Assembly (NCBI GenBank): GCA_964354025.1
Contig: CAYGXQ010000004.1
Span: forward strand, 10,239 to 74,238
Direction: 5' to 3'
Origin: an uncultured Gammaproteobacteria bacterium
GTDB taxonomy: Bacteria; Patescibacteriota; Microgenomatia; 2-02-FULL-39-11
Length of the DNA: 64,000 nt
The stretch's first letter is position 1, and the number at the start of each line of letters is the position of its first letter. A model generated the notes under the pieces. That model ran no database searches and was not told the DNA's origin. It was given only the letters and a program-made list of their open reading frames with translations. Below are positions 7,806 through 58,517 of the stretch, piece after piece. A program made the position numbers and the translations under genes.

Positions 7806-7949
7806 GTAATAGATGTATATTAAACCAGTTTTGGCTGATTGGGGGTTTTAGAATGGGGGATTTTGAGGTGCTGGTAGGCTTTTTCGGTGGCTAAGTTAAG
7901 GTCTTGACAAAGATAATTTTGTATTGTACTGTAATATACAGGATCAGGT

Positions 7950-8267
7950 ATGAATGAAGAATTAGTTATTCCCGAAGTAATTTCTTTTGAGTGGGATACG
8001 GGCAATCTGTTAAAAAGCAAGATCAAACATAAAGTTGATTCATTGGAATGTGAGCAGATTTTCCATAATGATCCTGTTTATTTTTTTGATGAGAAACATT
8101 CGCAAAAAGAGAAACGATATGCTGTTTACGGAGAAGCAGATCAGGGTAGGAAGTTATTTATTATTTTTACAATAAGAGATGACAAGATCAGGGTGATTTC
8201 CGCCCGCGATCAGAGTAAAAAAGAAAGGAGGGTATATGAAAAAAATAAAACCAATGCCCAGATTTAA
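7950..8267 (+). CDS. brnT: BrnT-family ribonuclease toxin (DUF497)
   Basis: 105 aa. The C-terminal IRVISARDQSKKERRVYEK matches the BrnT signature, paired with the overlapping downstream RHH gene. Confidence 0.7.
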   Translation: MNEELVIPEVISFEWDTGNLLKSKIKHKVDSLECEQIFHNDPVYFFDEKHSQKEKRYAVYGEADQGRKLFIIFTIRDDKIRVISARDQSKKERRVYEKNKTNAQI

Positions 8268-8520
8268 AAAAGAAGATGAAGAAAGGGATTTTTGGGCGAC
8301 CCATGACAGTACGGAATATTTTGATACGGCCAAGCCCATAAAGCTGAGTTTTCCCAATCTTCGGCCGTCTAACAAAGCCATCACTTTGAGGCTGCCGTTA
8401 TCCCTTCTTCATGCTTTGAAGAATCTGGCCAATAAAAAAGACGTACCATATCAGTCATTGATGAAAGTTTTTCTGGCGGAAAAGGTAAGGGATGAGATAA
8501 ATTACCGGAGGTGCAAATAG
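8236..8520 (+). CDS. brnA: BrnA antitoxin (CopG/RHH-like)
   Basis: 94 aa. …ITLRLPLSLLHALKNLANKKDVPYQSLMKVFLAEKV fits the BrnA family. It overlaps the end of brnT. Confidence 0.7.
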   Translation: MKKIKPMPRFKKEDEERDFWATHDSTEYFDTAKPIKLSFPNLRPSNKAITLRLPLSLLHALKNLANKKDVPYQSLMKVFLAEKVRDEINYRRCK

Positions 8521-8565
8521 GGTTTCACCTTAGAGGTGTACTTCTCAAAAATCCGTAAGTGTATT

Positions 8566-8799
8566 TTAAGTACAGAATCCCTCTGAAGGAGCAAAAACAT
8601 TTCCTCCGCAAGATCCACAAGTATAAAGAACCCTACCGGTTTTAGGTATCTGTTCCCATTGTTCCGGATCACAAACTAAAGTACCGGTACCTCCGGGACA
8701 ATTACCATGTGGTCCTAATGTAATTTCAATTCTATAAAAACACTTGTGAAACTCAAAATATCCTTCAGTCGATTGCCTTTGTCCCTTTATCTCTTTCAT
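8566..8799 (-). CDS. small Cys-rich protein of unknown function
   Basis: 77 aa with 6 Cys in CPGGTG…C and CGSCGGN motifs (zinc-ribbon-like). It sits downstream of the 349-aa gene on the same strand. Confidence 0.3.
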   Translation of the reverse strand: MKEIKGQRQSTEGYFEFHKCFYRIEITLGPHGNCPGGTGTLVCDPEQWEQIPKTGRVLYTCGSCGGNVFAPSEGFCT

Positions 8800-8848
8800 A
8801 ATAGTCTTGTTTAGTTTATGTTTCCCTCAGGAGATAAAAGATAATAAA

Positions 8849-9898
8849 TCAATCCAGTGAATATTTTACTACTCCAGGAATTTCAGGTAAGAGGTTGAGA
8901 TCGGAATCCAAATGATTATCCGTCAGAGCCAAGGCGCAAACTCCTAAAGAAGGTAAATGCTCCAGTACAGTTATAATGTCTTTGTATAAGATCGAAAATC
9001 CAAAAATAGTCTTCATGCCCCGTGTTGTATTTATAACAGCCTCATCTTGAAAAATTAAGCGATTAGTTGTATCTCGGATACGTTCTCCTTCAATAAGCGC
9101 GTAATTGTCAGGATTAATAATCTTTTGAGCAAATAATTCTTCCATTGTCATATCGGCTAATTTAGCGTATTCAGGACTCAGGCTTAATCTTGCTACCCGG
9201 GGATTTTCCTTACCGCCGGGTTTGATATATTTATCTAAAATCATAAAGATTTTTGCAGCCAAAATGGAAGCGGCCGGAGCTACTGCTTCTAGCTTACCAA
9301 AAGGCAATTTATGGGGAAAAGGTTTAGGTTTATTTTTATCGAAATCTACTTGGACATCATTTTCGTCAGAATCAACGATAAGAACCGGTTTTCGTCTTGT
9401 ATCCGTAGGAGAGTATAAGTCCCGGATCTGTTTGATCAGTCCCTGGGCTTGTTGGCTGTTTGGACCAGCAGTTTTTGAGATTGCCAAAAGAGCGCTAAAG
9501 CCTTTGACAATAATGACAGGATTCAATAATGTTTTACCACTTATGGGTTCTGCAGAAAAAACTTCCAGTTCACCCGGGGAAACTTGAGGAAAATCAGCTT
9601 GAAGTTGTTTTGTCAATTTGGCACATGTGGCAACTGTCTGTTTCTCATCTCTGAAATCCACGAAATCAACCTGTGCTTTATTTTCGATTAATTTTTCTCC
9701 AAGCTTATCGAGAATAGTCGTTCCCTCACCGGTAAAACCGGATGGGATGATTCGTCCGTGAGGATGCTGGTAACAGGCACAGGTAGTCAATTTTCCTATG
9801 AGCCAATCAACGTATCTTGTCTTTACATGTTCGCCAACAGCGGAAAATTGTTGTTGTTCGAAAGATTGTAGGGTATTATCTGGAGTATTGGTAGCCAT
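8849..9898 (-). CDS. hypothetical protein (349 aa), cargo of islet 1
   Basis: Long uninterrupted ORF. No motif I can assign with confidence. Confidence 0.4.
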   Translation of the reverse strand: MATNTPDNTLQSFEQQQFSAVGEHVKTRYVDWLIGKLTTCACYQHPHGRIIPSGFTGEGTTILDKLGEKLIENKAQVDFVDFRDEKQTVATCAKLTKQLQADFPQVSPGELEVFSAEPISGKTLLNPVIIVKGFSALLAISKTAGPNSQQAQGLIKQIRDLYSPTDTRRKPVLIVDSDENDVQVDFDKNKPKPFPHKLPFGKLEAVAPAASILAAKIFMILDKYIKPGGKENPRVARLSLSPEYAKLADMTMEELFAQKIINPDNYALIEGERIRDTTNRLIFQDEAVINTTRGMKTIFGFSILYKDIITVLEHLPSLGVCALALTDNHLDSDLNLLPEIPGVVKYSLD

Positions 9899-9899
9899 A

Positions 9900-10928
9900 T
9901 CAGATTAATTTTTCTTGTTTAGCCTCGGAAGAATGTCTGATTTTGAGGTGCTGGTAGGCTTTTTCGGTGGCCTGGCGGCCGCGGGGAGTCCTTTTTAAGA
10001 AACCGATTTGCATAAGATAAGGTTCGAGAACTTCTTCAATCGTGCCGATATCCTCAGAGAGGGTGGCCGCCATAGTTTCCACTCCGACCGGGCCGCCGCC
10101 ATGCTTTTCGATCAAAGCTTTAAGAAACCTCCGGTCACTGTCATCAAGCCCCAGCTGGTCAATTTCCAGAAGGGAAAAAGCCTCGGCTAAAACTTCCTCG
10201 TCAATATTTTCTTTACTTTTTACCTGGGCAAAGTCACGGGCCCGTTTGAGAAGTTTCAGGCCGATTCTTGGCGTGCCGCGGGCACGAATGGAAAGGGATT
10301 TAAGGGAATCGGGGGAAATATGGATCTTCAGTTTCTTTGAGGCATTACGGATAATTTCTTCCAGTTCTTTCGGTTCATAAAATTGCAGTCTTTGGACAAT
10401 GCCGAAGCGGTCGCGAAGGGGAGCGGACATGAGGCCGATCCGGGTGGTGGCGCCGATGATGGTGAATTTCGGCAAGTCAAGCCGGAGCGTCCTGGCTGAG
10501 GGGCCTTTGCCGATGACGATATCCAAGGCAAAATCCTCCATAGCCGGATACAAAGTTTCCTCAACCACTTTATTGAGCCGGTGGATTTCATCGATAAACA
10601 AAACATCGCCCGGTTCAAGGTTAGTCAAAATCGAAGCCAGGTCACCCGATCTTTCGATGGCCGGACCGCTGGTAACGCGGATATTGACACCCATTTCTTT
10701 GGCGATCAGGTGGGCCAAAGTGGTTTTGCCAAGTCCCGGCGGGCCGTATAAAAGCGTGTGTTCAAGCGATTCTTTCCTTTTTTTGGCGGCGGTGATGGCT
10801 ACATGGAAGGATTGTTTGACGCGGGACTGGCCGAAGAACTCCGACCAGGCAGAAGCGCGAAGGGAGGTAAAGAGTTTTTCCTCTTCCACGTCCGGTACTT
10901 GTTTATTGGTGGATGGTTTAGTAGTCAT
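9900..10928 (-). CDS. ruvB: Holliday junction branch-migration ATPase RuvB
   Basis: [22 protein letters not shown] (Walker A), DEIHRL (Walker B) and a winged-helix C-terminal domain. Confidence 0.9.
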
Positions 10929-22941: not shown

Positions 22942-23472
22942 ATGGATATTACTGACGACCAAAACGAATTGTTTGATATCGTGGATGAGGATGATCAGGT
23001 CATTGGTCAGGCGAGAAGGGGAGAAGTACATAAGGATAAGAAGTTGATCCATCGGAGTGTGAGTATTCTGGTTTTCAATGACTGGGGCGAGTTGTATCTG
23101 CAGAAGCGGTCAGCCACTAAAGACACAGATCCGGGTATATGGACGGTTTCCGCCTCCGGTCATGTGGAAGTGGGGGATAATTATGAGGAAACAGCGCATA
23201 GAGAACTACGGGAGGAATTGGGGATCGATATGGAGATTTCTTTTGTTGATAAATTCCTCTGTCGCGCTCCACATGAAACGGAGATGACAGCCATCTTTAA
23301 AGCCTTTCATAACGGTCCTTTTAAGTTAAACAAAGAGGAAATATCCGATGGTAAATTCTTTACCCGTAAAGAGCTAAATGAGGCAGTAAAAAAAGGAGAA
23401 ATTGACTTGAGTTTTATGGGAAGGCAGGTTTTGGAAAGAGTGGGGTGGATTTTAGGGCGAATTCCAAAATAA
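22942..23472 (+). CDS. NUDIX hydrolase
   Basis: GHVEVGDNYEETAHRELREELGI matches the Nudix box GX5EX7REUXEEXGU. Confidence 0.75.
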   Translation: MDITDDQNELFDIVDEDDQVIGQARRGEVHKDKKLIHRSVSILVFNDWGELYLQKRSATKDTDPGIWTVSASGHVEVGDNYEETAHRELREELGIDMEISFVDKFLCRAPHETEMTAIFKAFHNGPFKLNKEEISDGKFFTRKELNEAVKKGEIDLSFMGRQVLERVGWILGRIPK

Positions 23473-24624
23473 CATCTGCATTTTGGATTCGCCACAAAGG
23501 GCCGCAATCCTAAATAATTGTAAACATTATTTAGGAGCGAGCCCTTAGAGCAACTTTTTAATTTCCGAAATTGTCGATCTTTGTTTTGTCTGCAATTCCC
23601 TGATTTTTTTTACCCGTTCAATCATCGAAGGGTCAAATAACTGGTAACCGCCTTTGGTGAAACCCGCAACCGGTAATAATCCCTCTTTTGTCCAATACCT
23701 GATGGTATGGATTGTTTCATTGGTTGCCTTTGCCAATTCCCCGATTTTGAGGGAGGATTTCTCAGGTGAAAACTTTTTCAGGACCGGCTGTTTTTCTTCG
23801 ACAGCCCTGGTGAACATATCAAGAGAATTTTCAACTGCTTTTTCAATGAAAGCGTAGAAGGGTTGAAGATCATTTTTGGTTTGTCCGGTAAAAATAGCGT
23901 CAAGATATTGGGTGCGTTCTTCGTTTTTTATGATGGCCATGGGATACCCGTTTAAAAGCAAAATAAGATTCATCAGAAGCCTGGCTGTCCTTCCATTACC
24001 GTCAACGAACGGATGGATAGATACCAACTTAAAATGAGCATCGGCGGCAATTCTGACGGGATGATTTTCCTGTTGTCCTTCCAGCCAGCGGAAAAAGTCT
24101 TTCATCAGTGGCGGTACCTGACGGGGGAGGGGAAATTCAGTGTCAACACCCCGGATAAAAATTTCCGTTGCCCGATACCGGCCGGCCCAAAGATCATTGA
24201 TGCGGGTTAGAATAATTTTATGGATTGCCAATACATCAGCTTCGGAAATATATTGATGTCCCTTCAGTTTTGTGGAAAGCTCTTTGATGTAATCGACTGC
24301 TTGCGCGTGATTAATCGCCTCCAATTGATCTTGGAGCGGCTTGCCGCTGATAACCGCAGTGACACCTCTTTCGATCACTTCCGCAGTCTCAAGGCGGGAG
24401 AGGGTATTGCCTTCAATGGCATTTGAAGAATAAGTCAGTTCAACCTTTAGCCATTCCTCAAGGTTTTTGATCAGTTCAGGCGGCAACGGTCTGTATTTAT
24501 CCAATTGCCGTTTTTTCTCCGTCAGGATTTTTAATAGGCTGTCCATACCTAGAAGTATAAAGCAATGCTTTATGGTTGTCAAGTTATTGATGGGAAGAAA
24601 GGTTTTGGAGAGGGTGGGGTGGAT
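23416..24624 (+). mobile_element. putative integrated cargo islet 2 at the NUDIX gene 3' end, bounded by a ~35-bp imperfect direct repeat
   Basis: ATGGGAAGGCAGGTTTTGGAAAGAGTGGGGTGGAT (23416-23450, end of the nudix CDS) recurs as ATGGGAAGAAAGGTTTTGGAGAGGGTGGGGTGGAT at 24590-24624. The only gene between the copies is Fic-MerR. Confidence 0.45.
23545..24582 (-). CDS. Fic-family AMPylation protein fused to a MerR-type HTH
   Basis: HPFVDGNGRTARLLMN matches the Fic motif HPFx(D/E)GNGRxxR. The C-terminal IGELAKATNETIHTIRYWTKEGLL is a MerR-like HTH. Confidence 0.8.
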   Translation of the reverse strand: MTTIKHCFILLGMDSLLKILTEKKRQLDKYRPLPPELIKNLEEWLKVELTYSSNAIEGNTLSRLETAEVIERGVTAVISGKPLQDQLEAINHAQAVDYIKELSTKLKGHQYISEADVLAIHKIILTRINDLWAGRYRATEIFIRGVDTEFPLPRQVPPLMKDFFRWLEGQQENHPVRIAADAHFKLVSIHPFVDGNGRTARLLMNLILLLNGYPMAIIKNEERTQYLDAIFTGQTKNDLQPFYAFIEKAVENSLDMFTRAVEEKQPVLKKFSPEKSSLKIGELAKATNETIHTIRYWTKEGLLPVAGFTKGGYQLFDPSMIERVKKIRELQTKQRSTISEIKKLL

Positions 24625-24628
24625 AAAA

Positions 24629-26020
24629 TTAGCGAATGCCGTATTTGATTAAACGTTTGGCTTCGATCCGCAGGACTTCCGGAATCAGAGCTTTGTAGAC
24701 ACTGCAATACGGTGAAGAGGTATCATACCGCCCTTTTTGTTGATAGGTAAGTAAGGGGCAGCCGCCACCACAAAGGTATTTCCACTGACAATTCTTACAA
24801 GGAGTTTTACCTAATACAGTCAAACCAATTGGTCTGACAAAATTACCTTTTATCATTGTCTCCATCAAATCAGGATCATCAATAGAGCCGATCGGTTTCT
24901 CCAAAGTCATCTGACAGCTTGATAGCTTTCCCTGATGGTTAATGACCAGATAACCGTAGCCCATGCCGCAGGGATGAAAATGGGGTTTGCTGAAATTTAC
25001 CCGGTCCAAAAGACTGTCCATCACCGGATATTCAGGCGGATTGTCATAAAGATATTGATAGGCTTTTTTTAATTTTTTAACTAACTTTTTATCATTGCCT
25101 TCCAATTCTTCGGTAACATAAGGATTTTCACGATAGAAATTAAAAGCAAAATGGATCTTCCGGTCAAGCAAATATTTCGTCAACTCGGGAATTCCGTCAA
25201 TGTTTTTGGATGAAATAGTCACGGAGACATTAAAAGGAACTTTAGCTTTTATTAAATTATTTATCCCTTTTATCACCAGATCAAAACTGCCAATACCAGA
25301 AGGAAATATTCTTGTCCGGTCGTGAAATTTTTTCAAACCGTCAAGAGAAACTGCCGCCCGAAGGTTATTCTCTTTTAATATTATAGCCACTTTCTCATTA
25401 ATCAGGATGCCATTGGTCAAAACGACAAAATCAGTTTTGATGCCGTATTTCTTGCTTAAACTTTTAGCCTGTTTGACAAGTGTGAGAATCATCGGCAGTT
25501 CCAAAAGAGCTTCTCCGCCGGAGAATTTCAGGGCAACTTTTTCAATCCCGTGTTTTTTGGCAGACAGGTATACTTGATCAATGGCTTTCTTGCCGACTGC
25601 CGGACTCATCTTCTCTACGGTTTTGCGGACATAACAATAAGTGCAACGCAAATTACACTGGTTGATGATATGCAGCCAAACGCTGATGATTTTGGGTTTT
25701 TTGGCTGATAATTCCAGCAGGGTCTTGGGTTTACCGAAATAAATGATTTCTGAAGCGTATAAATCTTTGAAAGTCTGTTTAATGACGGAAAACTTGATTT
25801 TGGGAACTTGTTTTTGAGCTGACTGCCAAATATCCTCAAGCGTCTTTTTCCCGTCTATCAAAGAGTACAAAAAAGCGGCATCCTTATTTAAGACAACTAA
25901 ACCTTTTTCCGAAAGAGGAGCGTAAACCAATAAAAAACCCTCCACTTTATCCGTATAAGTCTCCGGATAAAAGCAAGGGACAGAAGAAGCGGTTAAATCA
26001 GAGTTTAAACTCATCCGCAT
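24629..26020 (-). CDS. radical SAM/SPASM maturase with N-terminal PqqD-like RRE
   Basis: CNLRCTYCY (CxxxCxxC) and GGEALL (SAM glycine motif). A C-terminal CKNCQWKYLCGGGC (Cx2Cx5Cx3C SPASM) follows, and the first ~100 aa (GLVVLNKDAAFLYSLIDGKKTLEDIW…) resemble a RiPP recognition element. Confidence 0.8.
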   Translation of the reverse strand: MRMSLNSDLTASSVPCFYPETYTDKVEGFLLVYAPLSEKGLVVLNKDAAFLYSLIDGKKTLEDIWQSAQKQVPKIKFSVIKQTFKDLYASEIIYFGKPKTLLELSAKKPKIISVWLHIINQCNLRCTYCYVRKTVEKMSPAVGKKAIDQVYLSAKKHGIEKVALKFSGGEALLELPMILTLVKQAKSLSKKYGIKTDFVVLTNGILINEKVAIILKENNLRAAVSLDGLKKFHDRTRIFPSGIGSFDLVIKGINNLIKAKVPFNVSVTISSKNIDGIPELTKYLLDRKIHFAFNFYRENPYVTEELEGNDKKLVKKLKKAYQYLYDNPPEYPVMDSLLDRVNFSKPHFHPCGMGYGYLVINHQGKLSSCQMTLEKPIGSIDDPDLMETMIKGNFVRPIGLTVLGKTPCKNCQWKYLCGGGCPLLTYQQKGRYDTSSPYCSVYKALIPEVLRIEAKRLIKYGIR

Positions 26021-32927: not shown

Positions 32928-32932
32928 CTTTT

Positions 32933-32999
32933 TAGCGTCTAGAGGTTAGCGTTTAGCGTTTAGAAAAAACTATACGCTAGACGCTAGTAACTAAACGCT
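32933..32999. repeat. TAGCGTCTAG-unit palindromic element (between tRNA-Ala and 23S)
   Basis: TAGCGTCTAGAGGTTAGCGTTTAGCGTTTAG-AAAAAACTATA-CGCTAGACGCTAGTAACTAAACGCT. The right arm is 22/23 identical to the ruvA-ruvC copy. Confidence 0.65.
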
Positions 33000-33051
33000 G
33001 ATATTGGCTCTTTAAAAAGTGAATAGAATGTAAGTATTGGACACATCTTTA

Positions 33052-36116
<3,065 letters not shown>

Positions 36117-36183
36117 GATGTCAAGGATACTTATTCTATTCACTTTTTAAGGCGCTAAATAAGCACTTTTTACATTCGAATCT

Positions 36184-36299
36184 TTCGGTCTTTTGAGCGG
36201 AGTGGTACTACCTCTTCCCATACCGAACAGAATCGTAAAACGCTCCAGCGCCGACGATAGTTTAGGCGCAAGCCTAAGCGAAAATAGGTCAAGGCCGAA
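36184..36299 (+). rRNA. rrf: 5S ribosomal RNA
   Basis: …GGUACUACCUCUUCCCAUACCGAACAGAAUCGUAAAACGCUCCAGCGCCGA… matches the conserved 5S loop C/helix III regions. The terminal helix pairs UUCGGUC with GGCCGAA. Confidence 0.8.
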
Positions 36300-36367
36300 G
36301 GATTTGAGTGTAAAAAGCATATGCTATAATAAAGCAATCTTACAAAGAAAGGACGGTATGAGAACAA

Positions 36368-40432: not shown

Positions 40433-40461
40433 TTGACAAGTATTTTTCTGAGTGTTAGAAT
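40433..40461 (+). promoter_or_regulatory. sigma70-like promoter (TTGACA-17-TAGAAT)
   Basis: TTGACA at 40433-40438, a 17-nt spacer, then TAGAAT at 40456-40461. Confidence 0.4.
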
Positions 40462-40540
40462 GGCCCGACTGAACTGAATAATCTCTATTCTATGACAAGA
40501 TTGCCCTATAAATTATTTTTGCAGATCATTTCTTTATTTA

Positions 40541-40586
40541 CTCTGGTGGTTGCCGTTTGCGGCAAAAACCAGAGTTTTTCTTTTTA
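40541..40586 (+). terminator. intrinsic terminator hairpin + T-tract
   Basis: CTCTGGTGGTTGCCG-TTTG-CGGCAAAAACCAGAG followed by TTTTTCTTTTT. Confidence 0.5.
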
Positions 40587-40768
40587 TTGCAGGTAAATGT
40601 ATTGATCTTGGGATGGGGAATCGGATGTAGGGCAGGCGTCCGATTTCCCTTTCGAGGGTCAATCGGCAATAATTACGCGTCTAGAGAGTGTAATTTGAGG
40701 AGACTTTGATAATCTTCGTCGTTCCGCTTTCAAAAACCATTTTTTACAGTATTCACGTTAATCCCGCT

Positions 40769-40797
40769 TGACAAGTGGCGCAATTCGCGTTAAAATA
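40769..40797 (+). promoter_or_regulatory. sigma70-like promoter of the COG1373 ATPase gene (TTGACA-17-TAAAAT)
   Basis: CTTGACAAGTGGCGCAATTCGCGTTAAAATAG immediately upstream of ATG 40806. Confidence 0.4.
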
Positions 40798-40805
40798 GTA
40801 ATATT

Positions 40806-41939
40806 ATGCTTATTCCGCGCTTACTCACTGCCACTATTTTGGAGAAACTGAAGTTCTCAAATAAGGGAGTGATTATCTACGGAGCCAGGCAGGTGGGTAA
40901 GACCACGCTGGTAAATGAGGTTATCCGCTTGCTGGGCTTAAGGACTTTGACGGTAAATGGAGATCAAAGTCGTTTTATTGATATCTTTTCAAGCCGCGAT
41001 CTGGCAAAGATAAAATCTTTAACCGAAGGTTACGAATTGCTTTTCGTCGATGAGGCACAGAGGATTCCGGAAATAGGGATTGCCTTAAAAATCATTCTGG
41101 ATAATCTGCCTTCCTTAAAAGTACTGGTGACAGGTTCATCTTCTTTGGATCTGGCGAGCAAAATCAGCGAACCACTGACCGGTCGTGTCTGGAATTACCG
41201 TTTGTATCCGATTTCCTTTCAGGAACTAATGCAAAATCAAAATAAAGCTGAACTTGATACTACTTTGGAAGAAAGGCTGATATACGGGTCGTATCCGGAA
41301 GTATGCCTGATGATCGGTGATGCTCAAAAAAGGGAATATCTGCAAAATTTAAGCGATGCCTATTTATATAAAGATCTAATTGAATTCGGCGAGATAAAAA
41401 ATTCCTCCAAAATCAGGGATCTGGTGAAACTGCTGGCTTTTCAGATAGGCTCGCAGGTTTCTTTGTCGGAGATCGGCAGTCAACTCATGATGAGCAAAGA
41501 TACCGTATCAAGATATATTGATCTTTTAGAAAAATCAAACATTATTTTCCGCCTGAAAGGCCTTAGCCGTAATTTGCGGAAGGAAGTAGTGAAAATGGAT
41601 AAAATATTTTTCTATGATTTGGGAATAAGAAATATTGTGATTGATAATCTTAAACCTTTAAAAGACCGTATTGATACCGGTCAGCTTTGGGAGAATTTTC
41701 TGATAATCGAAAGAATGAAATCATTGGCCTACAGACAGGAATATGCCTCGATATATTTTTGGCGGACTTATACAGGCGCGGAATTGGATTACGTGGAAGA
41801 AAAAGAAGGGAAATTAAGCGGATTTGAATTTAAATTCGGAATAAAAACAGCTAAACCGCCCATCAGCTGGATGAAAACTTATCCCAAATCAGGGTTTAAG
41901 TGTATAAATAGGGACAATTACCTTGATTTTATCCTTTAA
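40806..41939 (+). CDS. COG1373-type AAA+ ATPase (AAA_14 + DUF4143)
   Basis: GARQVGKTTL (Walker A), LFVDEAQ (Walker B) and a C-terminal DUF4143-like region. Confidence 0.65.
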   Translation: MLIPRLLTATILEKLKFSNKGVIIYGARQVGKTTLVNEVIRLLGLRTLTVNGDQSRFIDIFSSRDLAKIKSLTEGYELLFVDEAQRIPEIGIALKIILDNLPSLKVLVTGSSSLDLASKISEPLTGRVWNYRLYPISFQELMQNQNKAELDTTLEERLIYGSYPEVCLMIGDAQKREYLQNLSDAYLYKDLIEFGEIKNSSKIRDLVKLLAFQIGSQVSLSEIGSQLMMSKDTVSRYIDLLEKSNIIFRLKGLSRNLRKEVVKMDKIFFYDLGIRNIVIDNLKPLKDRIDTGQLWENFLIIERMKSLAYRQEYASIYFWRTYTGAELDYVEEKEGKLSGFEFKFGIKTAKPPISWMKTYPKSGFKCINRDNYLDFIL

Positions 41940-44296
41940 TACCTGAAGGTATCCACTTTTATCACCTTCGTTGTTCCGCTTTCGAAGACCACTTTTCCAA
42001 GTTTCAAGACCTTTTCTTCATCAAGAGCCGGGTATTTTTGTCTTTCCAGAGTGCCTAAGAAAATATATTCCACATTGTATTTACGGAGAATCTCCTTGGT
42101 ATTTTCCATGTCTTTTGACTCGTAAATGGCGGCCACTTCCGGGATCCTTTTACCGGCCTCGTCATAACTGCCGCGCCAAAGCCATTCGTGGACCGGCCAG
42201 CCGACAATTGTTGGTAAACCAGTATATGCTGAGACCCGGTCAAAGTCGGTGTAAGAGTCACCGTTGGCCTCTACAATGACCGGTTGTTTGTTGCAGTCGG
42301 TTCCTTCACAGCTGATATTTTTATTCAGCCACATGATGGCGTTGTAATCATCCGGATACTGATTGATCATCCAGCTGATGCCGTTTAAGCTGTAATATTT
42401 TTGCAGGTTGCCGTAATAAGAGTTGATGGCAAATTGGGGATAGATGGCCACCAGGGTAAAAAGAATCAGAAAGCAAAAAGTATAAAGGATAAAACCGATT
42501 TTTCTTCCCCTGTCTTCTTTTTCCGCCCTGATCCGGAAGAAAATATAGGCGCTGGCGATCCCGAGCATCATGAAAGCCTGGTAGCCGAGCTTAAACATGG
42601 TGTTGGCCCGGTAATGGGCCGGATAGATATCCTTGATGTAGAAAAATTCCGGAAAAATTAAAAGAAGTGTAGAGATGAAGATCAGTAAACCAACAAAAAT
42701 ATCGATCGGATTAAGGTTTATAAGCGACGATAACTTATTTTTGAGTTCCCGAAGAGGACGGAGAGAACCGATTTTCGGCCAAATGACCAGCGTCAAAAAA
42801 CCGAAGACGTTAAAATAGAAAAATCCCCACAAGAGAGCCAGCATATAAAGAGGCGACTTCTGGCAATGGTCGGCTTCAAAAAGCAGCGGACCGATTTTTT
42901 TGTCAGCCAGGAATTTCGGCGCGCATAAAACGCCCAGACCGGAAACAAACGGCTTGAAGTTAAGTGAAAATGGAAGGTTAGCCACCAGGAAGAAAAACAG
43001 CAGGAAAAGCGAGGCGGAAAAGGTTTTGTATAAAAGAGCAAATAAAGTCACCTGCTGATCCGTTTTTTTCCTTCTGATGTTGACATAGAGAAAAACCAGA
43101 CCGCACAAAACCATATAAATCAAGCCGTCCCAGGCGTTGGTCATATACATGACCGCCAGGAGTGTTCCCAGTAAGATGATTTTATAAAAAGGGATGGAAG
43201 TATGGTTTTCGAAATCAGCAATGAATGAAGACAGTCTGGATGGGGCAGAAGAGATGTTTTCCAGCCGCTTCTCCTTGCGTTCTTCAATGACGATGGTTAA
43301 AAGCAAAGCAATGATCAAAAAGACCATCGGGATGTCTGAAACGTGTCCATGAAGGTCGGCTACCACAAATGAATAGATGGGAAACTCATGGATGGTAAAA
43401 GGAACAAAGCGGGTGGCGTTGGGATACCAGTACTTTTCCGGGTGATACCCGGCTTCTATTTTCCAAAAAGGGACAGGGTCTTCATTTGGGTAACCGTTGG
43501 TGAAGACATAAATTGTGTGTAAGTTGCCGCCGAGCGAAACCAAAAAAGCGGCCAACAGACCGACTATCAGCAGCTTCAGATTATCCCGGAAATTCAGGGG
43601 CATCTCCCGGACATTTTTCAGGTGTTTTAATTTCAGTTTCAGGTTTTCCCATAAGTGAAGCCTCAGGAAGTAATACAAATTCATAGCGATAGAGAAAGGC
43701 AGGGTAAAAGTGAAGGCGAAGAGGGTAGCGATCATCAGATTATAAGTAATTGCCGAGTCGATCCCGGCAATTTTTGTGAGGAAAGCGTTGATGTAGTGGC
43801 CGTAATAATAATAATTGATGAAATAGCCGCCGGTGTATTCCGGCGATTTGGTCAGCCACATATCAAGGGGCGGGAAGTAGGTGGTCCGCAGGATTGAATT
43901 AACGAAGCCGAAGTCCATATATTTTTCCAGGGAATGGATGGAAGGCTCATTGGCCCGGACATATGACCATAAAGAAAGAGTCAGGAGAAAAAGGCTTTCT
44001 TCAAGGATAATTAACCGCCAGGGAATTTTCGTTTGGCTGTTTTTATTTCTCAAAAACAAGTTAAATAAAGCAAATCCCACCAGAACGACGATGATCGTCA
44101 TTTTGGAAAAGGGGAGGATGTGGAAACTGCCCAGAAGCCAAATAAGGTATGAGGAAGACAGGATGCCGATGATTTTGGAGAAGATGTAGCCTTTATCGAG
44201 AAATTTGCGGAAAATGGAGAAGGTGATCGGGGTGAAAATGCCGCCGATGACGAAAATCGTCAGCCACCAGATTAAAATAGCTGAAACATCAGACAT
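41936..44296 (-). CDS. DUF2298/Chlor_Arch_YYY-family polytopic membrane protein (putative glycosyltransferase)
   Basis: 786 aa, many TM segments, and a YFINYYYYGHY motif matching the YYYxG hallmark of this family. Confidence 0.5.
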   Translation of the reverse strand: MSDVSAILIWWLTIFVIGGIFTPITFSIFRKFLDKGYIFSKIIGILSSSYLIWLLGSFHILPFSKMTIIVVLVGFALFNLFLRNKNSQTKIPWRLIILEESLFLLTLSLWSYVRANEPSIHSLEKYMDFGFVNSILRTTYFPPLDMWLTKSPEYTGGYFINYYYYGHYINAFLTKIAGIDSAITYNLMIATLFAFTFTLPFSIAMNLYYFLRLHLWENLKLKLKHLKNVREMPLNFRDNLKLLIVGLLAAFLVSLGGNLHTIYVFTNGYPNEDPVPFWKIEAGYHPEKYWYPNATRFVPFTIHEFPIYSFVVADLHGHVSDIPMVFLIIALLLTIVIEERKEKRLENISSAPSRLSSFIADFENHTSIPFYKIILLGTLLAVMYMTNAWDGLIYMVLCGLVFLYVNIRRKKTDQQVTLFALLYKTFSASLFLLFFFLVANLPFSLNFKPFVSGLGVLCAPKFLADKKIGPLLFEADHCQKSPLYMLALLWGFFYFNVFGFLTLVIWPKIGSLRPLRELKNKLSSLINLNPIDIFVGLLIFISTLLLIFPEFFYIKDIYPAHYRANTMFKLGYQAFMMLGIASAYIFFRIRAEKEDRGRKIGFILYTFCFLILFTLVAIYPQFAINSYYGNLQKYYSLNGISWMINQYPDDYNAIMWLNKNISCEGTDCNKQPVIVEANGDSYTDFDRVSAYTGLPTIVGWPVHEWLWRGSYDEAGKRIPEVAAIYESKDMENTKEILRKYNVEYIFLGTLERQKYPALDEEKVLKLGKVVFESGTTKVIKVDTFRY

Positions 44297-44352: not shown

Positions 44353-44751
44353 TCAGAGAAGCTTCACGAAGCCTGATTTTTTAGTTTTCTCAAAAAGTTT
44401 TTTATCAGCGGTGATTAGTTGGGTGTTCAGTCTTTTAGCGAGAAATATATAGGAGTAATCATAAAAACTGATGTTAACATCGTGAGCTTCATTAATTATC
44501 TTATTCCAATCTTGAAAGGTCAAGTCATGGTATGATAAAGGTAATTCTTCAAGAATTTTACCGGCCTGTTCAATTTTATCTTCTGAGTAGGGTTTATGAA
44601 AGAGAAGTGAGTTGCCTATCTCATAATAAAGGAGTCTGGGAACAGACACGGATATTTTTCTCTCTTTAATATCCGCAAATAAAACAAGGGCTTTTTCCGT
44701 TCCCTCTTCAATGATAAACCATTTAAAAATAACGGAAGAATCAAGTATCAT
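44353..44751 (-). CDS. vapC: PIN-domain toxin VapC
   Basis: 132 aa. MILDSSVIFKWF… has PIN acidic residues. It lies directly downstream of the antitoxin, 5 bp apart. Confidence 0.6.
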   Translation of the reverse strand: MILDSSVIFKWFIIEEGTEKALVLFADIKERKISVSVPRLLYYEIGNSLLFHKPYSEDKIEQAGKILEELPLSYHDLTFQDWNKIINEAHDVNISFYDYSYIFLAKRLNTQLITADKKLFEKTKKSGFVKLL

Positions 44752-44756
44752 TATTA

Positions 44757-45092
44757 CTATTTCTCATTCCGGTAATGTGTATGTGTCTTTAACCACTTTT
44801 TACCATAGCGTTCATCACGCATCTTGCGGATAAATTCGGTGGATGATAAACCACCAAAACCATTTTTATTTGATCCCCAAGTCTTCCGCCAGTTTTCAAG
44901 CATTTTTGAAACTCTTTCAAGACGATCTGCATGCTTCTTTTCTTCAATCTCTCTCTTTTTCTCCTCAAAAGGATACATCACCACCACGGGTTCATTTTGT
45001 CTCTCCACGATCATAGGTTCGCCGGTGGCAATCACCCGGTCAATGATTTCCCCGAATTTTTGCCTGAAGGTGAGAGCGCTGACGGTATTCAT
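44757..45092 (-). CDS. Phd/YefM-type antitoxin
   Basis: Start taken at MNTVSALTFRQKFGEIIDRVIATGEPMIVERQNEPVVVMYPFEE (YefM fold). The longer upstream ORF extension is probably not translated. Confidence 0.5.
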   Translation of the reverse strand: MNTVSALTFRQKFGEIIDRVIATGEPMIVERQNEPVVVMYPFEEKKREIEEKKHADRLERVSKMLENWRKTWGSNKNGFGGLSSTEFIRKMRDERYGKKWLKTHTHYRNEK

Positions 45093-45168
45093 TATGATAA
45101 TGATACTATCATATGATATATTATATATCAATTGCTTCCACGGTAACCCTCCACGAGTTTCCGAAAAT

Positions 45169-45272
45169 GTCATTGCGATCCGCCCGCTGGCGGAGAAGCA
45201 ATCCCGTGATGTTACAGTAATTCCTACGGGATCGCCACGGGACGCACCGTCTGGTGCATCCCTCGCGATGAC
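45169..45272. repeat. palindromic ~100-bp dispersed element (GTCATTGCGA…CCGCCCGCTGGCGG…GAAGCAATCCCGT…GGATCGCCACG…CTCGCGATGAC), copy A, intergenic
   Basis: Terminal inverted repeats GTCATTGCGA / TCGCGATGAC and an internal 14-bp palindrome. Shares the GAAGCAATCCCGT and GGATCGCCACG blocks with copies at 46587, 54249, 58407 and 59479. Confidence 0.7.
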
Positions 45273-47155: not shown

Positions 47156-48556
47156 ATGGTTAATATGATTAACCAAATTCCGGAAAGCACCAAAAGATTC
47201 CTGAGTTTGCAGAATCCGTGGTTTTCCGCGCCGGTTGAGATTATCAAGGAGGATGAAAAGCTTAAAGAGCTGGACAGTCAGCATTTCCAATGGCAGCCGG
47301 AAATTCTGGATGAAATTTCATACCAGCCGGGCGTGTTTGTTCTGCGCGGTCCCCGCCAGGTAGGCAAAACTACTGTTGTCAAATTATTGATTAAAAAGTT
47401 ATTGCTTGAAAAAAAAGTACCTCCAAGTTCTGTTTTTTATTATTCCTGCGAGGATCTGCAGAATTTTCAGGATTTAAACAACCTGATTTTCAGTTTTTTT
47501 GATCTGGCCGGTTCATTGCCGGCGGGTAAAAGATATATTTTTCTGGATGAGATTTCCTTTGTCAGGGAATGGCAAAGAAGCATTAAGTCATTCGTGGAAA
47601 GCGCGGGGGGGAAGAATATTTTTTTCTTTTTAACAGGTTCTTCTACTATTGACCTTGAATTTTCAGGTGAAAGATTACCGGGCAGGAGGGGAGCCTACAC
47701 CAGAGATTATTTATTTTTACCCCTGACTTTTGGAGAATTTGTGAAATTAACCTCACCGGAACTGTTTCCACCCGAAGAAAAGAAACAATTATTGATTTTG
47801 CCGAAATTGCGCGCCAAACTTCATCAATATCTTCTGACCGGCGGTTTTCCGAAAGCGATCAACAATTACTTCAAAAACAGAAACATTTCGCAGTCTATTT
47901 ATGAACTTTATATTTCCTGGGTGTTGGGCGATATCCATAAATTGAATAAATCGGATAAGTTTTTAAATAATTTACTGGCCGTATTGCAAAAACATGAGTC
48001 TTCGACGTTTTCGTACCAGTCTTTAGCCAGAGAAAGCGGCATTATTTCCCATCTGACGGTCCAGGATTATTTGGCGGTATTAGAAAAAATGTTTGTCCTT
48101 TTTCCGATTGACGCTTTTTCCATTGCCGAGAAAAAACCGTCTTATAAAAAAAATCATAAGAATTATTTTTATGATCCTTTCATCAAAAATTGCCTGAATG
48201 CCAGCGCCTTTGGTTTAACGGAGAATATCGCCAACTATATTAATGATCAAAAAGAAGAAGAGGATTACTGGTCAAAAAACGCGGAGAATTTGGTCGCTTC
48301 GCACCTTAAACGGGACAGTGCCCAATTATACTGGGGATCAATAGGCGAGAGGGAAGTGGATTTCGTCGTTTTCAAAGACGGAAGTTACAGTTATTTTGAG
48401 GTTAAACAGAGCGCGAGAGTCGAATTTGAAGATTTTTCATATTTTTTCACCGCGATGCCAAACAGCCGCCTGACAGTGATTTCCAAGAATGACTTTTGGG
48501 AAAAGAAAAATCTGAAAGTTATCCCTTTGGAACTGTTTCTTCTGAAAAAATTTTAA
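47156..48556 (+). CDS. COG1373-type AAA+ ATPase (second paralog)
   Basis: GPRQVGKTTV Walker A, then YIFLDEISF. Same architecture as the gene at 40806-41939. Confidence 0.65.
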   Translation: MVNMINQIPESTKRFLSLQNPWFSAPVEIIKEDEKLKELDSQHFQWQPEILDEISYQPGVFVLRGPRQVGKTTVVKLLIKKLLLEKKVPPSSVFYYSCEDLQNFQDLNNLIFSFFDLAGSLPAGKRYIFLDEISFVREWQRSIKSFVESAGGKNIFFFLTGSSTIDLEFSGERLPGRRGAYTRDYLFLPLTFGEFVKLTSPELFPPEEKKQLLILPKLRAKLHQYLLTGGFPKAINNYFKNRNISQSIYELYISWVLGDIHKLNKSDKFLNNLLAVLQKHESSTFSYQSLARESGIISHLTVQDYLAVLEKMFVLFPIDAFSIAEKKPSYKKNHKNYFYDPFIKNCLNASAFGLTENIANYINDQKEEEDYWSKNAENLVASHLKRDSAQLYWGSIGEREVDFVVFKDGSYSYFEVKQSARVEFEDFSYFFTAMPNSRLTVISKNDFWEKKNLKVIPLELFLLKKF

Positions 48557-49684: not shown

Positions 49685-51355
49685 TTAATTGGCAAACAAA
49701 CTATAACCTTTTGAAATATTGATTATCTTGCCGTTCGGATCCAGCTGTTGGAATTTATCGTTAAAATCTTCAGGAAAGATGATCGCGTAAACATATTTTT
49801 CATTAGGATTAAAAGTAGTTATAAACCCGTCATGATAGCCTGTGGTAATAGACTTAGCATTTTTTCCCTGTGAAAAATAATAGACTTTATCAAAGCCAAA
49901 TCCGGGATACGCAGCCACATAAATATGTCTTCCAGGGAAGTTTTTATTTATATAGTCGGAGATCATAACGCTTTCATTATAGCTTTCTTTTTCTACTGAT
50001 TTTAGGAAATATTTTTCATTATTGAAACAATAAATTAATAGAAAAATGATGATTAAGCCATATCCCAGAATTTTAAAATTCTTAGTCAGTTTAAAAAGGG
50101 TAGCAAACGGCAGAGCGCAGATAACAGATATAAAAGGGAAAGCCAAAGTTAACCGGTGATAGCCGGGGGGTGGAACGGCTAAGATCACTGTCGCAAGGGA
50201 AAGAAAAATGGTTAAAAACAAGACAAAAATAATCAGATTGTTGAAAAGCATGGTTGAGCCGATGAGCAAACCCAATATAAAGAGAATAAGCGTGAATTTA
50301 TCAAAAATCGCCTGATGGGCAAAGTCAAATCCGCCTGCGCCCCCGATATCGTTTTGATAGAAGGATTTTAAGGTATTCAGGGCGTTTTCTTTCAGGGGTA
50401 TCAGCGGACTTTCGCCTTTTTGGATTCGTTCCCGGGCTCCCGACCAGGATCCGGTTAGAAGAGAGACTTGGTTGGTGCGGGAAGTGAAATAATTATCGAA
50501 ACGGAAGGCGTAAGTTAAAAACGGACCTAAAACCACCAAAAAACCAATTAAGGCCCAAGCAAAATTTTTTATAACAGTTGATTTCTTATATTTCAAAAAC
50601 TGAAAAAAATAGACGATTGCCATTACCGGTAAAGCGATAAATGAAGTCATATAAAATAAATAACAAAAACCACAGGAAATTCCTGTCAGAACCGAGGAGA
50701 AATCGTTTCTTTTGCCTATTCCGTAAATCAAGGCGGCAATAAAGAGACAATAAATTGCAGTCCCGCTGATAAAAATCAATCCTAAAGTATCGAAGTACAA
50801 ACTGATGGCTAAAAACCCATAAAGGATTACGGCGATTAAAGCTATTTTCTTCGGGATGGATTTACCGGCAATATAAAAAAGGGCCGCGGAAACGATCAAT
50901 ATATAAGGTATAACCGACAATTTAACCGTAAGCAGATTTTCCCCAAAGATTAGAAAAAAGAATTTTTGCAACGCAAAAAACGGAGCAGGAAATTGAGATT
51001 GCCATTGAGTCTTATCACTGGGAATCCCGGAGAAAAAGATTATTTTTGAGAAATTTTCGGTGGCGGAAAAATAAGCGGTAAGCATGTCATCTCCATGGAT
51101 CCGGTTCAGATTGAAATTGACGATACGGACAATAGATGGCAGGAGAATAATCAGGAAAATAAGCAAATATTTTTTATTCACAAACCCGGATGGCAGTTTT
51201 AACGCATTTTTCTTACCGGTTAGAACACCCAGCGGTAAAATAACAATGGAGAGAATCCACCAGTATATTAAAACAGGAGAATATTTGCCGGTACTGACAG
51301 CAAAACTTATGCAGAGAGTAATAATAATTGATAACAGATAGATGATTATTTTCAT
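49685..51355 (-). CDS. GT-C-fold polytopic membrane protein (PMT/ArnT-like glycosyltransferase), paralog A
   Basis: 556 aa, ~12 TM, a periplasmic-loop RIHGDD motif and a C-terminal soluble domain. It has a tandem duplicate whose 3' ~270 bp are near-identical. Confidence 0.45.
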   Translation of the reverse strand: MKIIIYLLSIIITLCISFAVSTGKYSPVLIYWWILSIVILPLGVLTGKKNALKLPSGFVNKKYLLIFLIILLPSIVRIVNFNLNRIHGDDMLTAYFSATENFSKIIFFSGIPSDKTQWQSQFPAPFFALQKFFFLIFGENLLTVKLSVIPYILIVSAALFYIAGKSIPKKIALIAVILYGFLAISLYFDTLGLIFISGTAIYCLFIAALIYGIGKRNDFSSVLTGISCGFCYLFYMTSFIALPVMAIVYFFQFLKYKKSTVIKNFAWALIGFLVVLGPFLTYAFRFDNYFTSRTNQVSLLTGSWSGARERIQKGESPLIPLKENALNTLKSFYQNDIGGAGGFDFAHQAIFDKFTLILFILGLLIGSTMLFNNLIIFVLFLTIFLSLATVILAVPPPGYHRLTLAFPFISVICALPFATLFKLTKNFKILGYGLIIIFLLIYCFNNEKYFLKSVEKESYNESVMISDYINKNFPGRHIYVAAYPGFGFDKVYYFSQGKNAKSITTGYHDGFITTFNPNEKYVYAIIFPEDFNDKFQQLDPNGKIINISKGYSLFAN

Positions 51356-51368: not shown

Positions 51369-53036
51369 TTAATTCACGAACAAACTATAACCTTTTGAGA
51401 TATTGATTATTTTGCCGTTTGGATCCAGCTGTTGGAATTTATCGTTAAAATCTTCAGGAAAGATGATCGCGTAAACATATTTTTCATTAGGATTAAAAGT
51501 AGTTATAAACCCGTCATGATAGCCTGTGGTAATAGACTTAGCATTTTTTCCCTGTGAAAAATAATAGACTTTATCAAAGCCAAATCCGGGATAGGAGGCC
51601 ACATAGATATTTCTGCCGGGGAAGTTTTTATTGATATAGTCGGAGATCCTCAGACTTTCATGATATTCTTCACCTTTTATTGATTTCAAAAAATACTGCT
51701 GATTAAAGTACATATAGATAAATATAAAGATCACACAAACGATGTATCTTATTAGTCTATTTGTCTTATTGAGTGACAGCAAAATATAGAAGGGAATCGA
51801 AAGGATCATGGATAAGAATGGGAAAGATAGGGAAAGCCGGTGGTAGGCCGGTGGAGGAGTGGAGAAGACCATCGCGCTAAAACAAAAAAGAATAGTCAGA
51901 TAAATAAAAAGTACTTCGAAATTGGTAAAGATGAGAAATATTCCGATTATTGCTCCAGCAATAAATAGGTATAGAGAATATTTTTCAAAAAAAGCCAGAT
52001 GGCCGAAGTCATAGCCGCCGTGACCGCCAATACCATCTTGATAAAATGATTTGAGAGAAATAGTTAAACTTTCCTTAATTTCGTTGAGAGTACTGCTTTC
52101 ACCGCGGGCGATTTTATCTTTGATACCAGACCAGGAGCCGGAAAGTAGAGAGACTTGACTGGTGCGGGAAAAGAAATAATTATTGTATTTCAAAGCATAA
52201 GTAAGATAAGGCGACAGAACAATGAGGAAAGTCACGATGGCCAGGCCGAAATTTCCTATCACGGACAGTTTTCTCACGTTAATCAGTTGAAGAAAATACA
52301 AAATCAGCATCAGGGGAAAAGCGATAAAAGAAGTGTTATAAAAAAGATAACAAAAGCCGCAAAATAGTCCCGTCAACACGGAATAAACCGGTCTGTTTTT
52401 TTTCCACTGAAGAATCGCAAAGTAGAAGAAAATCATAAATGGTGCCGTACTGCTGACAAAATGCAATCCTAAAGTTTCATGGTACAGACTGATTGGTAGG
52501 AAAGCGTAAAGAATAACCGTGATGATAGCGGTTTTAGCATTAAAGATTTCCCGTATAATCAGAAATAGCATGAGGGAGATAATCAGTACATACGGGATTA
52601 CCGATAATTTTACGCTCAAGACGCCTTCTCCGAAACAAAGGAAAAATATTTTTTGCAGGGCAAAAAACATCGTCGGAAATTGGGCAACCCATTGTCCTTT
52701 ATCTGAAGGAATGCCTGAGAAAAAGTTTATTTTTGCGAAATTTTCGGTGGCGGAAAAATAAGCGGTGATAAGATCATCTCCATGGATACGACTGAGATTA
52801 TAGTTGGTTATCCTGATAATTGAAGGCAACAGAATTGCCAGGATAATGATGAGATTTTTTATCGAAAAGCGGATTTTGATATGGAAACTTTTTTTCTGAT
52901 ACAAAACCGAAGCAAGGATGAAAATGATTGACAATATCCACCAATAAATAAGAACCGGAGTATATTGATTCCGGAAAACCATCAGGTTGATATAAATACT
53001 GATTAGGATGGAAATAAAGAAAAAAATAATTTGCAT
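51369..53036 (-). CDS. GT-C-fold polytopic membrane protein, paralog B
   Basis: 555 aa, collinear with 49685-51355. Same RIHGDD motif and an identical C-terminal 85 aa. Confidence 0.45.
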   Translation of the reverse strand: MQIIFFFISILISIYINLMVFRNQYTPVLIYWWILSIIFILASVLYQKKSFHIKIRFSIKNLIIILAILLPSIIRITNYNLSRIHGDDLITAYFSATENFAKINFFSGIPSDKGQWVAQFPTMFFALQKIFFLCFGEGVLSVKLSVIPYVLIISLMLFLIIREIFNAKTAIITVILYAFLPISLYHETLGLHFVSSTAPFMIFFYFAILQWKKNRPVYSVLTGLFCGFCYLFYNTSFIAFPLMLILYFLQLINVRKLSVIGNFGLAIVTFLIVLSPYLTYALKYNNYFFSRTSQVSLLSGSWSGIKDKIARGESSTLNEIKESLTISLKSFYQDGIGGHGGYDFGHLAFFEKYSLYLFIAGAIIGIFLIFTNFEVLFIYLTILFCFSAMVFSTPPPAYHRLSLSFPFLSMILSIPFYILLSLNKTNRLIRYIVCVIFIFIYMYFNQQYFLKSIKGEEYHESLRISDYINKNFPGRNIYVASYPGFGFDKVYYFSQGKNAKSITTGYHDGFITTFNPNEKYVYAIIFPEDFNDKFQQLDPNGKIINISKGYSLFVN

Positions 53037-54346: not shown

Positions 54347-54413
54347 ATTTTTTTGACTTTTCAAACAGGTTCTAACGCGATATTTTTGATATTTGCACTT
54401 TGATTTTGAAGTG

Positions 54414-58505: not shown

Positions 58506-58517
58506 AAATAACCAATT

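Follow-up and report, generated by a model that had tools for sequence, protein, structure and literature searches.

The closest described counterparts of the element dealt with here are e14 and phage 21, which insert in the 3' end of icd, supply a replacement end and leave the gene intact (icd and icdC; PMC13626634). The original end stays downstream as a fragment, and what separates the two copies is mostly synonymous or conservative substitution (PMC13626634); on excision, a gene that is chimeric but still functional would be restored. Salmonella genomic island 1 (SGI1) in trmE exemplifies the wider class of integrative elements with insertion sites in the 3' ends of tRNA or protein genes (PMC8409611). 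The same arrangement was found in a stretch of 64,000 nucleotides (positions 10,239 to 74,238 of contig CAYGXQ010000004.1, assembly GCA_964354025.1; called the window below), where a cassette with one ATPase gene of the PDC-S01 (COG1373) family occupies the 3' end of a gene for a DUF2298 membrane protein. An empty site, a mosaic of attL- and attR-like junctions and a replacement 3' end were all recognized for this unit; an integrase encoded by the element was not. Elements of the e14/icd type measure 15-40 kb or more and encode an integrase beside att, whereas the window unit comprises 1.25 kb, one cargo gene and no recombinase, and the cassettes related to it use many unrelated targets.

Other described systems resemble the unit in part. 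The cis-mobilizable elements (CIMEs) of streptococci and the microcin H47 genomic island of E. coli likewise lie between imperfect direct repeats and encode no recombinase; the H47 island excises via its repeats by a RecA-independent host activity (PMC5426353). However, these are multigene islands, coding-tail mimicry under selection is not described for their repeats, and CIMEs are explained by the integrase of a cognate integrative and conjugative element, none of which was evident in the window. Integron cassettes are also single-gene units of about 1 kb, often with defence or toxin-antitoxin cargo, that accumulate without a recombinase of their own. They differ in using attC hairpins and IntI/attI, whereas the window cassette has its own promoter and its bounding repeats are copies of a target-gene end and vary from site to site. 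Integron signatures were missing, as Rfam at gathering thresholds returned rRNA and tRNA only and no integrase, transposase or reverse transcriptase domain was detected in the scanned open reading frames (ORFs) of at least 100 aa in the 64-kb window. Nor did the unit look like a transposon or insertion sequence, with no transposase found in the window, repeats of 23-111 nt and differences biased towards synonymous ones. The cargo is a full-length match to the PDC-S01/COG1373 family with the Walker motifs and the PD-(D/E)XK residues intact. In the literature PDC-S01 is a defence candidate recognized by its island position, and a literature search did not bring up its packaging as a repeat-bracketed, tail-mimicking single-gene unit. 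It was concluded that the integrase-free, tail-mimicking cassette is real, that its principle is the known 3'-end replacement of the e14/icd type and that the variant is new. It is unusual in its one-gene size, in that no recombinase was found, in its recurrence with unrelated cargo and targets and in its link to PDC-S01.

A sequence-only reading of the window had reported a 31-bp duplicate of the DUF2298 terminus. The duplicate proved real and longer, with 35 of 42 nt identical (40703-40744 against 41955-41996) and the copies 1,252 nt apart; the 31-nt core within it is identical at 27 of 31 positions. The distal copy was said to be still legible as a DUF2298 tail, and on the minus strand it does translate as KMVFESGTTKIIKVSSNYTL between two stop codons; the gene itself ends in GKVVFESGTTKVIKVDTFRY and a stop codon. 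The ATPase gene, described as the only gene between the copies, is indeed the sole complete ORF of at least 60 aa there, has AAA_14 and DUF4143 matches and is preceded by the promoter that had been proposed for it (Table 1). The best match of a window 42-mer within 4 kb on either side was usually 22-24 of 42, and matches of at least 35 of 42 over this distance were otherwise limited to paralogous genes and two other short repeat pairs. The 26-nt core of the repeat was found at two sites only when up to three mismatches were allowed, and none was expected (100 shuffles). Because this core is confined to its two sites, the repeat is not a shared terminator motif, the alternative that had been named together with the duplicate.

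The insertion was seen directly through an empty site in a close relative, which was found by aligning related genomes. This locus, L006 (JALHWS010000059.1, Ca. Microgenomates PFL108), is collinear with the window at ~89-92% nucleotide identity. The alignment follows window positions 43379-41955, jumps to 40755-40633 and continues onward to radA, with 1,252 bp absent. Since L006 is collinear without these 1,252 bp, the window carries an insertion of that length. The DUF2298 gene of L006 ends in GKVVFESGTTKIIKVSPNYTL and a stop codon, which is the same tail type as the window relic, and it runs straight into the DNA found behind that relic. The earlier claim of an insertion with a displaced original terminus was supported in this way. 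The inserted unit consists of a 1,134-bp gene and 118 bp more (~61 nt of tail mimic and ~57 nt of promoter), and its GC content of 39% compares with 44% for the DUF2298 gene and 46% for radA. A strain-level empty site was not found by exact-protein look-up: the DUF2298 protein was not on record, and RadA gave the same arrangement only, in L081.

Table 1. Features of the DUF2298 locus and of its two sister instances in the window (positions count from the first nucleotide of the window).
Feature	Position	Strand	Evidence
Target gene, DUF2298 / chlor_Arch_YYY membrane protein, 786 aa	41936..44296	-	Pfam PF10060 4e-95; TIGR03662 8e-143
Inserted unit, 1,252 bp	40714..41965		Repeat spacing; gap in L006 alignment; composition
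Proximal repeat copy, attL-like	41955..41996	-	Three-way alignment with L006 empty site
Relic, attR-like: displaced original DUF2298 terminus, KMVFESGTTKIIKVSSNYTL and stop	40681..40743	-	Reading frame and L006 alignment
Cargo, AAA+ ATPase / winged helix-turn-helix (HTH) / C-terminal PD-(D/E)XK-type domain	40806..41939	+	Pfam, PADLOC, invariant columns, AlphaFold2 (AF2)
Cassette promoter TTGACA-17-TAAAAT	40768..40796	+	Consensus scan 11/12
Sister instance 1, ruvB end	7850..9971	-	Repeat pair 7850-7891/9930-9971
Sister instance 2, NUDIX end	23413..24631	+	Repeat pair 23413-23450/24587-24624

Some other features of this region were noted in passing. An ORF-free segment between a 107-aa ORF and the relic (window 40433-40592) holds a promoter-like TTGACA-17-TAGAAT with TG (11/12) and, ~80 nt past it, a strong hairpin with a U-run (40540-40590; fold z-score -2.4). 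The segment is conserved in L006, has no Rfam match and may encode a small RNA. L006 has an extra 253-aa ORF without a Pfam match between radA and the 107-aa ORF (2511-3272) and a 136-nt insertion (1495-1631) at window position 40633/40634. Its radA tail, PKEYRQIVKIILDMF before the stop codon, is markedly unlike the PRDFQHLPKIASDLF of the window, and a relic of the radA tail was not found in L006, despite the extra ORF after radA.

Both junctions of the inserted unit are mosaic. The 3' part of the relic together with the downstream DNA has 1 mismatch to L006 over ~78 nt, and the 5' part has 4-5 mismatches over ~31 nt. Accordingly partitioned, 40681-40713 is host-derived and 1 position off from the L006 tail, and 40720-40745 is cassette-derived with 4-5 differences. 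The gene-proximal copy shows the opposite pattern in a three-way alignment, namely a host-derived 5' part, a crossover zone CTTCGT..GTTCCGCTTTC (41966-41983) and a cassette-derived 3' part (41936-41965); the last 30 nt of this copy (GTGATAAAAGTGGATACCTTCAGGTATTAA) are unrelated to the L006 tail. By comparison of orthologue tails, the cassette contributes the last ~10 DUF2298 codons (VIKVDTFRY and the stop), and since TIGR03662 covers residues 5-781, the replaced tail lies inside the conserved domain. When the left half of the gene-side copy was joined with the right half of the relic, the L006 tail was recreated (reconstructed attB, junction TTGGAAAAGTGGTCTTCGAAAGCGGAACAACGAAGATTATCAAAGTCTCCTCAAATTACACTCTCTAG). 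The remaining two halves, joined, give the sequence that the cassette must have carried, which encodes KMVFESGTTKVIKVDTFRY and a stop codon (reconstructed attP, junction ACTGTAAAAAATGGTTTTTGAAAGCGGAACGACGAAGGTGATAAAAGTGGATACCTTCAGGTATTAAAGG). When compared with the 3'-terminal 75 nt of the L006 gene, attB scored 62 and attP 28. The cassette-specific variants GTT TTT, ACG and GTG are present in the natural DUF2298 tail of L011, another Gottesmanbacterium; the window itself belongs to a Gottesmanbacteria-like genome (Microgenomates, candidate phyla radiation). The mosaic reads as the product of one reciprocal (Campbell-type) exchange, in which a mimic carried by the cassette recombined with the tail in the chromosome, and not as a target-site duplication.

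It was proposed, as a moderately probable explanation, that the unit is a minimal integrative cassette of ~1.25 kb, composed of the PDC-S01 gene, its own promoter and an antisense mimic of the DUF2298 tail, and that its integration is guided by the mimic. The mimic is an antisense segment of ~60 nt copying the last 19 DUF2298 codons, presumably a tail captured from the orthologous gene of another Gottesmanbacteria lineage. A single reciprocal exchange with the chromosomal DUF2298 tail, within GAAAGCGGAAC..ACGAAG, put the cassette inside the gene. After this exchange the gene is intact and ends in cassette-borne codons, and its original end lies 1.25 kb downstream as a dead relic. The exchange could have proceeded by a single crossover of a circular copy, or through a repeat-ended linear copy taken up as DNA, both ends of which would pair with the single chromosomal tail. 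Because the cassette is a gene and no more than a mimic and a promoter, the mimic is the only plausible recombination site. Since no recombinase was found, there is no room for one and the mimic differs between cassettes and targets, integration would most likely be guided by the mimic and carried out by recombination functions of the host or acting in trans, and not by a dedicated sequence-specific integrase. The mimic would become the working gene end at every integration and would thus be under selection at the protein level.

Since the mosaic at the DUF2298 end rests on seven informative sites, replicates were sought. The order of gene 3' end, cargo and old 3' end had been said to occur three times in the 64 kb, and the instances at ruvB and at a NUDIX gene do exist. 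At ruvB (9900-10928, minus strand), an exact core of 33 nt that breaks off abruptly on its 5' side is common to the gene tail and a fragment 2,080 nt downstream. The cargo comprises a gene for a 349-aa protein without a Pfam match (8849-9898) and BrnT (7950-8267), and the relic tail lies at ~7827-7891. The site is empty in L174, where RuvB is 90% identical and a thioredoxin-reductase-like gene begins 12 nt after ruvB. The ruvB tail of L174, ending in KIPHPKSPNQQKLI and a stop codon, is of the relic type: the window relic is 86% identical to this working tail, and the working tail of the window is ~45% diverged from the relic. The occupied loci L175 and L176 have the window's working tail type together with a homologous cargo gene. 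The tail type moves together with the cargo, and a target-site duplication followed by decay therefore cannot explain it.

The NUDIX gene (22942-23472, plus strand) is followed by a convergent Fic+MerR-HTH cargo gene (23545-24582), which matches PDC-S04/SoFic, and by a relic at 24587-24650 that reads MGRKVLERVGWIKLANAVFD and a stop codon and whose sequence includes MGRKVLERVGWIK. In the genome of L006 (L177, JALHWS010000037.1, 5001-6634), a convergent AAA_14/DUF4143 (PDC-S01) gene overlaps the NUDIX stop codon by 6 nt, at the position held by the Fic-MerR cassette in the window. This gene is 27% identical to the window ATPase, and its contig stops before the point where a relic could be visible. 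In L178 the NUDIX gene lies directly before a glutamate dehydrogenase gene, and the NUDIX reading frame continues across the junction, which coincides with the 'GWIK' point of divergence of the window relic. Of window 23451-30289, L178 lacks not only the Fic cassette but also the radical-SAM/SPASM gene (24629-26020) and the gene for a 1,308-aa GNAT-domain protein (26340-30266). By these comparisons the NUDIX tail is a site whose cargo differs from relative to relative, and the recurrence of the architecture was upheld by related genomes at both ruvB and NUDIX.

The copies were compared codon by codon in eight tail repeats defined by blastn. The differences were synonymous in 35 codons and non-synonymous in 14, against an expectation of 21% synonymous for random single changes (binomial p=9e-14), and the stop codon was kept in register in several relics. 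Such a bias fits a mimic that is periodically used as a real gene end. The icd/icdC pair made by e14 has the same kind of synonymous pattern (PMC13626634). That the tail was imported with the cassette, that the copies differ like two functional alleles, that no recombinase was found and that the ATPase is PDC-S01 are points which go beyond the sequence-only reading.

Short repeats 250-8,000 nt apart were then considered over 1.46 Mb, made up of the window, 80 DUF2298 loci and a few others, and 69 direct and 14 inverted pairs were obtained. In 12 direct pairs one copy lay on a gene 3' end and the other downstream, and in 3 of these 12 the other copy was also on a gene end, which reflects paralog similarity; no pair in the scan had solely the 'wrong-side' arrangement. 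The tail duplicates are not one single phenomenon, because inspection showed mixed causes. L034 (16203-18950) is a complete diversity-generating retroelement (DGR): a 277-aa gene has at its 3' end a template/variable repeat pair of 123 nt, accompanied by a reverse transcriptase-like ORF and an accessory ORF of 120 aa. L011 is a tandem duplication of paralogs, and L003, L016, L040 and L045 are cases of paralog similarity. Cassettes of the window type were recognized in L019, with a secreted protein behind a signal-peptidase gene, and in L086, so that three lie in the 64-kb window versus about two in the other 1.4 Mb. No nucleotide duplicate of the gene's own tail was detected within 10 kb downstream at any of ~76 DUF2298 orthologue loci, and therefore the DUF2298 tail is not a general hotspot.

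Relatives of the ATPase, 73-80% identical, number in the thousands and occur in Woese-, Levy- and Daviesbacteria and others. The genes around them are unrelated from locus to locus, and for many the whole contig measures ~1.3-1.5 kb. No relative was obtained from viral contigs, so there was no sign of phage carriage. The suggestion that COG1373 ATPases are generally found as such cassettes was borne out for about one fifth of the testable relatives: among 57 metagenomic loci whose flanks extended for at least 300 nt both ways, 11 had flanking direct repeats of at least 38 bits, against 1 in the inverted control. At 7-9 loci, some of them mutually related, the repeats bracket the gene alone in units of 1,247-1,393 nt. 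Repeats around homologous ATPases are 23-111 nt long and 79-100% identical, and their sequences are unrelated between loci. No shared motif was seen among the cassette repeats on inspection, which disfavours a single site-specific recombinase. One copy spans the stop codon or tail of a convergent gene in the window, L086, L115, L141 and L146; the targets include Peptidase_M23, SNase and a pilin-like membrane protein. A second COG1373 paralog in the window (47156-48556) had been described as free of an obvious flanking repeat, and none was found. L159 (Ga0180007_10129425, 1-1655) is the sole short ATPase contig with a terminal overlap. It encodes a 52%-identical ATPase and starts and ends with the same 76 nt, so that it would be a circle of 1,579 nt or else carry a perfect repeat; with ~22-nt inverted repeats on either side of the gene as well, it is ambiguous.

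The cargo gene is convergent with the DUF2298 gene, and the stop codons of the two overlap. Its product matches AAA_14 (1.5e-29) and DUF4143 (2.1e-38) above the Pfam cut-offs, with an HTH match as well, and PADLOC PDC-S01 over its full length (2e-144). Walker A (G26-T34), Walker B (D82-E83) and the C-terminal E302/D328/E341-x-K343 are invariant, even versus the 26%-identical window paralog. DUF4143 has been assigned to the PD-(D/E)XK superfamily (PMC3424549), and PDC-S01/COG1373 proteins are ATPases fused to a PD-(D/E)XK domain (PMC12988326, PMC3424549). PDC-S01 is a candidate single-gene defence system and is reported to be the fourth most common one in prokaryotes (PMC12988326). The AF2 model has a predicted local distance difference test (pLDDT) score of 88.5. 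The nearest solved folds are RuvB, Orc1/Cdc6 and PABY2304, DNA-binding AAA+ proteins with a lid and a winged helix; a sequence search gave no solved structure, and the fold search gave generic AAA+/winged HTH neighbours only. The cargo is probably a DNA-directed ATPase/nuclease of the defence-island type. A promoter context '(C)CGCTTGACA' is shared upstream of the ATPase gene in the window, L108, L115, L106 and L150. Taken together, PDC-S01, the PDC-S04/SoFic-like Fic protein and BrnT suggest that the cargo of the window cassettes is of defence or toxin type.

The density of toxin-antitoxin genes in the window is high, with PIN at 3300-3674 (2969-3674), RHH-PIN (ribbon-helix-helix) at 7076-7805, the BrnT gene near ruvB and Phd-PIN at 44353-45173. 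The RHH-PIN pair is absent in L174.

Several points weigh against mimic-guided integration by the cassette. No circular form, attP junction or excision event was seen, the mimic and its target share at most 11 nt of perfect identity, which is short for a RecA-type exchange, and ~80% of the ATPase relatives are without a flanking repeat. The mosaic at the DUF2298 end is weakly significant when taken alone (ordering p ~1/35), the strong mosaic evidence being that of ruvB, and the L006 site could be excised instead of naive. Finally, the recombinase search spanned 64 kb of the genome, and an integrase could be encoded elsewhere in it. This last point would equally suit an explanation that we regard as unlikely but worth consideration, in which the unit is a CIME-like remnant of a larger integrase-encoding, 3'-end-targeting element that has kept attL and attR and that was put in place, or is even now mobilized, by a site-specific tyrosine or serine recombinase encoded elsewhere. 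The architecture agrees with e14/icd-icdC and other 3'-end elements, including the synonymous copy differences (PMC13626634), and the 33-nt exact core with its abrupt 5' boundary at ruvB is like a classical att site. Such a remnant would, however, hardly consist of a gene plus 118 nt without pseudogene debris. At least seven independent ATPase loci are equally tight (1,247-1,393 nt) and have unrelated repeats, so that an integrase of its own and a very precise decay would be needed each time. The ~76 other DUF2298 orthologue loci show no downstream tail duplicate, and no recombinase domain was detected either in the scanned window ORFs or, for L083 and L086, at distances of up to 6 kb from the ATPase. 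It was also considered, as an improbable explanation, that the ATPase-nuclease is itself the mobility enzyme, which would recombine or cleave at the sequence that its cassette mimics and make PDC-S01 genes autonomous single-gene elements. The bracketed units hold only the ATPase gene and a promoter, its catalytic-type residues are invariant, and its close relatives are spread across Woese-, Levy- and Daviesbacteria in unrelated contexts, often on contigs of ~1.3-1.5 kb; in addition, one PDC-S01 representative gave no protection against T4, T5 and T7 in E. coli B (bioRxiv 10.1101/2024.09.26.614923). Yet the same architecture was found with unrelated cargo (Fic-MerR, the 349-aa protein with BrnT and the secreted protein of L019), the second window paralog is without repeats, detectable repeats are missing from most relatives and no biochemical precedent exists. 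Slightly more doubtful again is the general claim that PDC-S01 (COG1373) genes are a new kind of autonomous mobile element, whose protein would drive homology-guided integration and excision at a captured mimic.

A long target-site duplication made by a transposition-type insertion, with one duplicate since decayed, was judged very improbable. Each copy is 3-4 of 42 nt off L006, which is within the ~10% genome-wide divergence. However, no transposase was found in the scanned window ORFs, the length of the repeats varies among homologous cassettes, the copy differences are overwhelmingly synonymous and not random, and the gene would need a usable new C-terminus by chance. At ruvB, moreover, it is the relic that resembles the working tail of a relative, and the strongly diverged working tail matches other cargo-bearing genomes. 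Genomes of the candidate phyla radiation (CPR) do have DGRs with a variable repeat at a gene 3' end, as in L034, and a tandem paralog duplication was met in L011; as explanations of the present repeat, a template/variable pair, a tandem duplication and a chance match were all rejected, with next to no probability left to them. No reverse transcriptase was found in the scanned window ORFs, the mismatches involve all bases rather than being adenine-specific, the gene between the copies is foreign and is missing from L006, and the 42-mer background and the shuffles of the 26-nt core rule out chance.

Mimic-guided integration, if confirmed, would let genes flow at very little cost, with no 'address label' beyond a short coding mimic kept functional by selection. 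The locus indicates that reduced CPR genomes can gain defence- or toxin-type genes singly, inside the ends of housekeeping genes and without damage to them, by means of a recombinase-less unit. PDC-S01 is among the most abundant candidate defence genes and is without a demonstrated function, and its frequent repeat-bracketed packaging as a single-gene unit is to be weighed when its presence in islands is read as defence. Were PDC-S01 genes autonomous elements, they would accumulate in islands through mobility, and not, or not only, through defence. For annotation, short orphan gene-tail fragments downstream of accessory genes mark recent insertions and preserve the ancestral allele.

Three further observations were made elsewhere in the window. 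A 100-nt intergenic direct repeat (54249-54347 and 58407-58506, 81% identical) brackets two large minus-strand genes, 54414-56348 without a Pfam match and 56363-58375 of the PMT family, which lie between UbiA-type and GT2 genes; the repeat may stem from duplication of a promoter region, or may bound a further insertion. Tandem PMT_2-family glycosyltransferase paralogs (49685-51355 and 51369-53036) have stretches of 100% nucleotide identity near one end, with 42/42 matches over ~150 nt, which suggests a recent duplication or gene conversion. Genes for tRNA-Ala, 23S and 5S rRNA (32855-36300) follow a DsbA-like gene immediately, and no 16S gene precedes them; the 23S match extends over 3,049 nt versus a model of 2,925 positions, so that the gene may contain an insertion.

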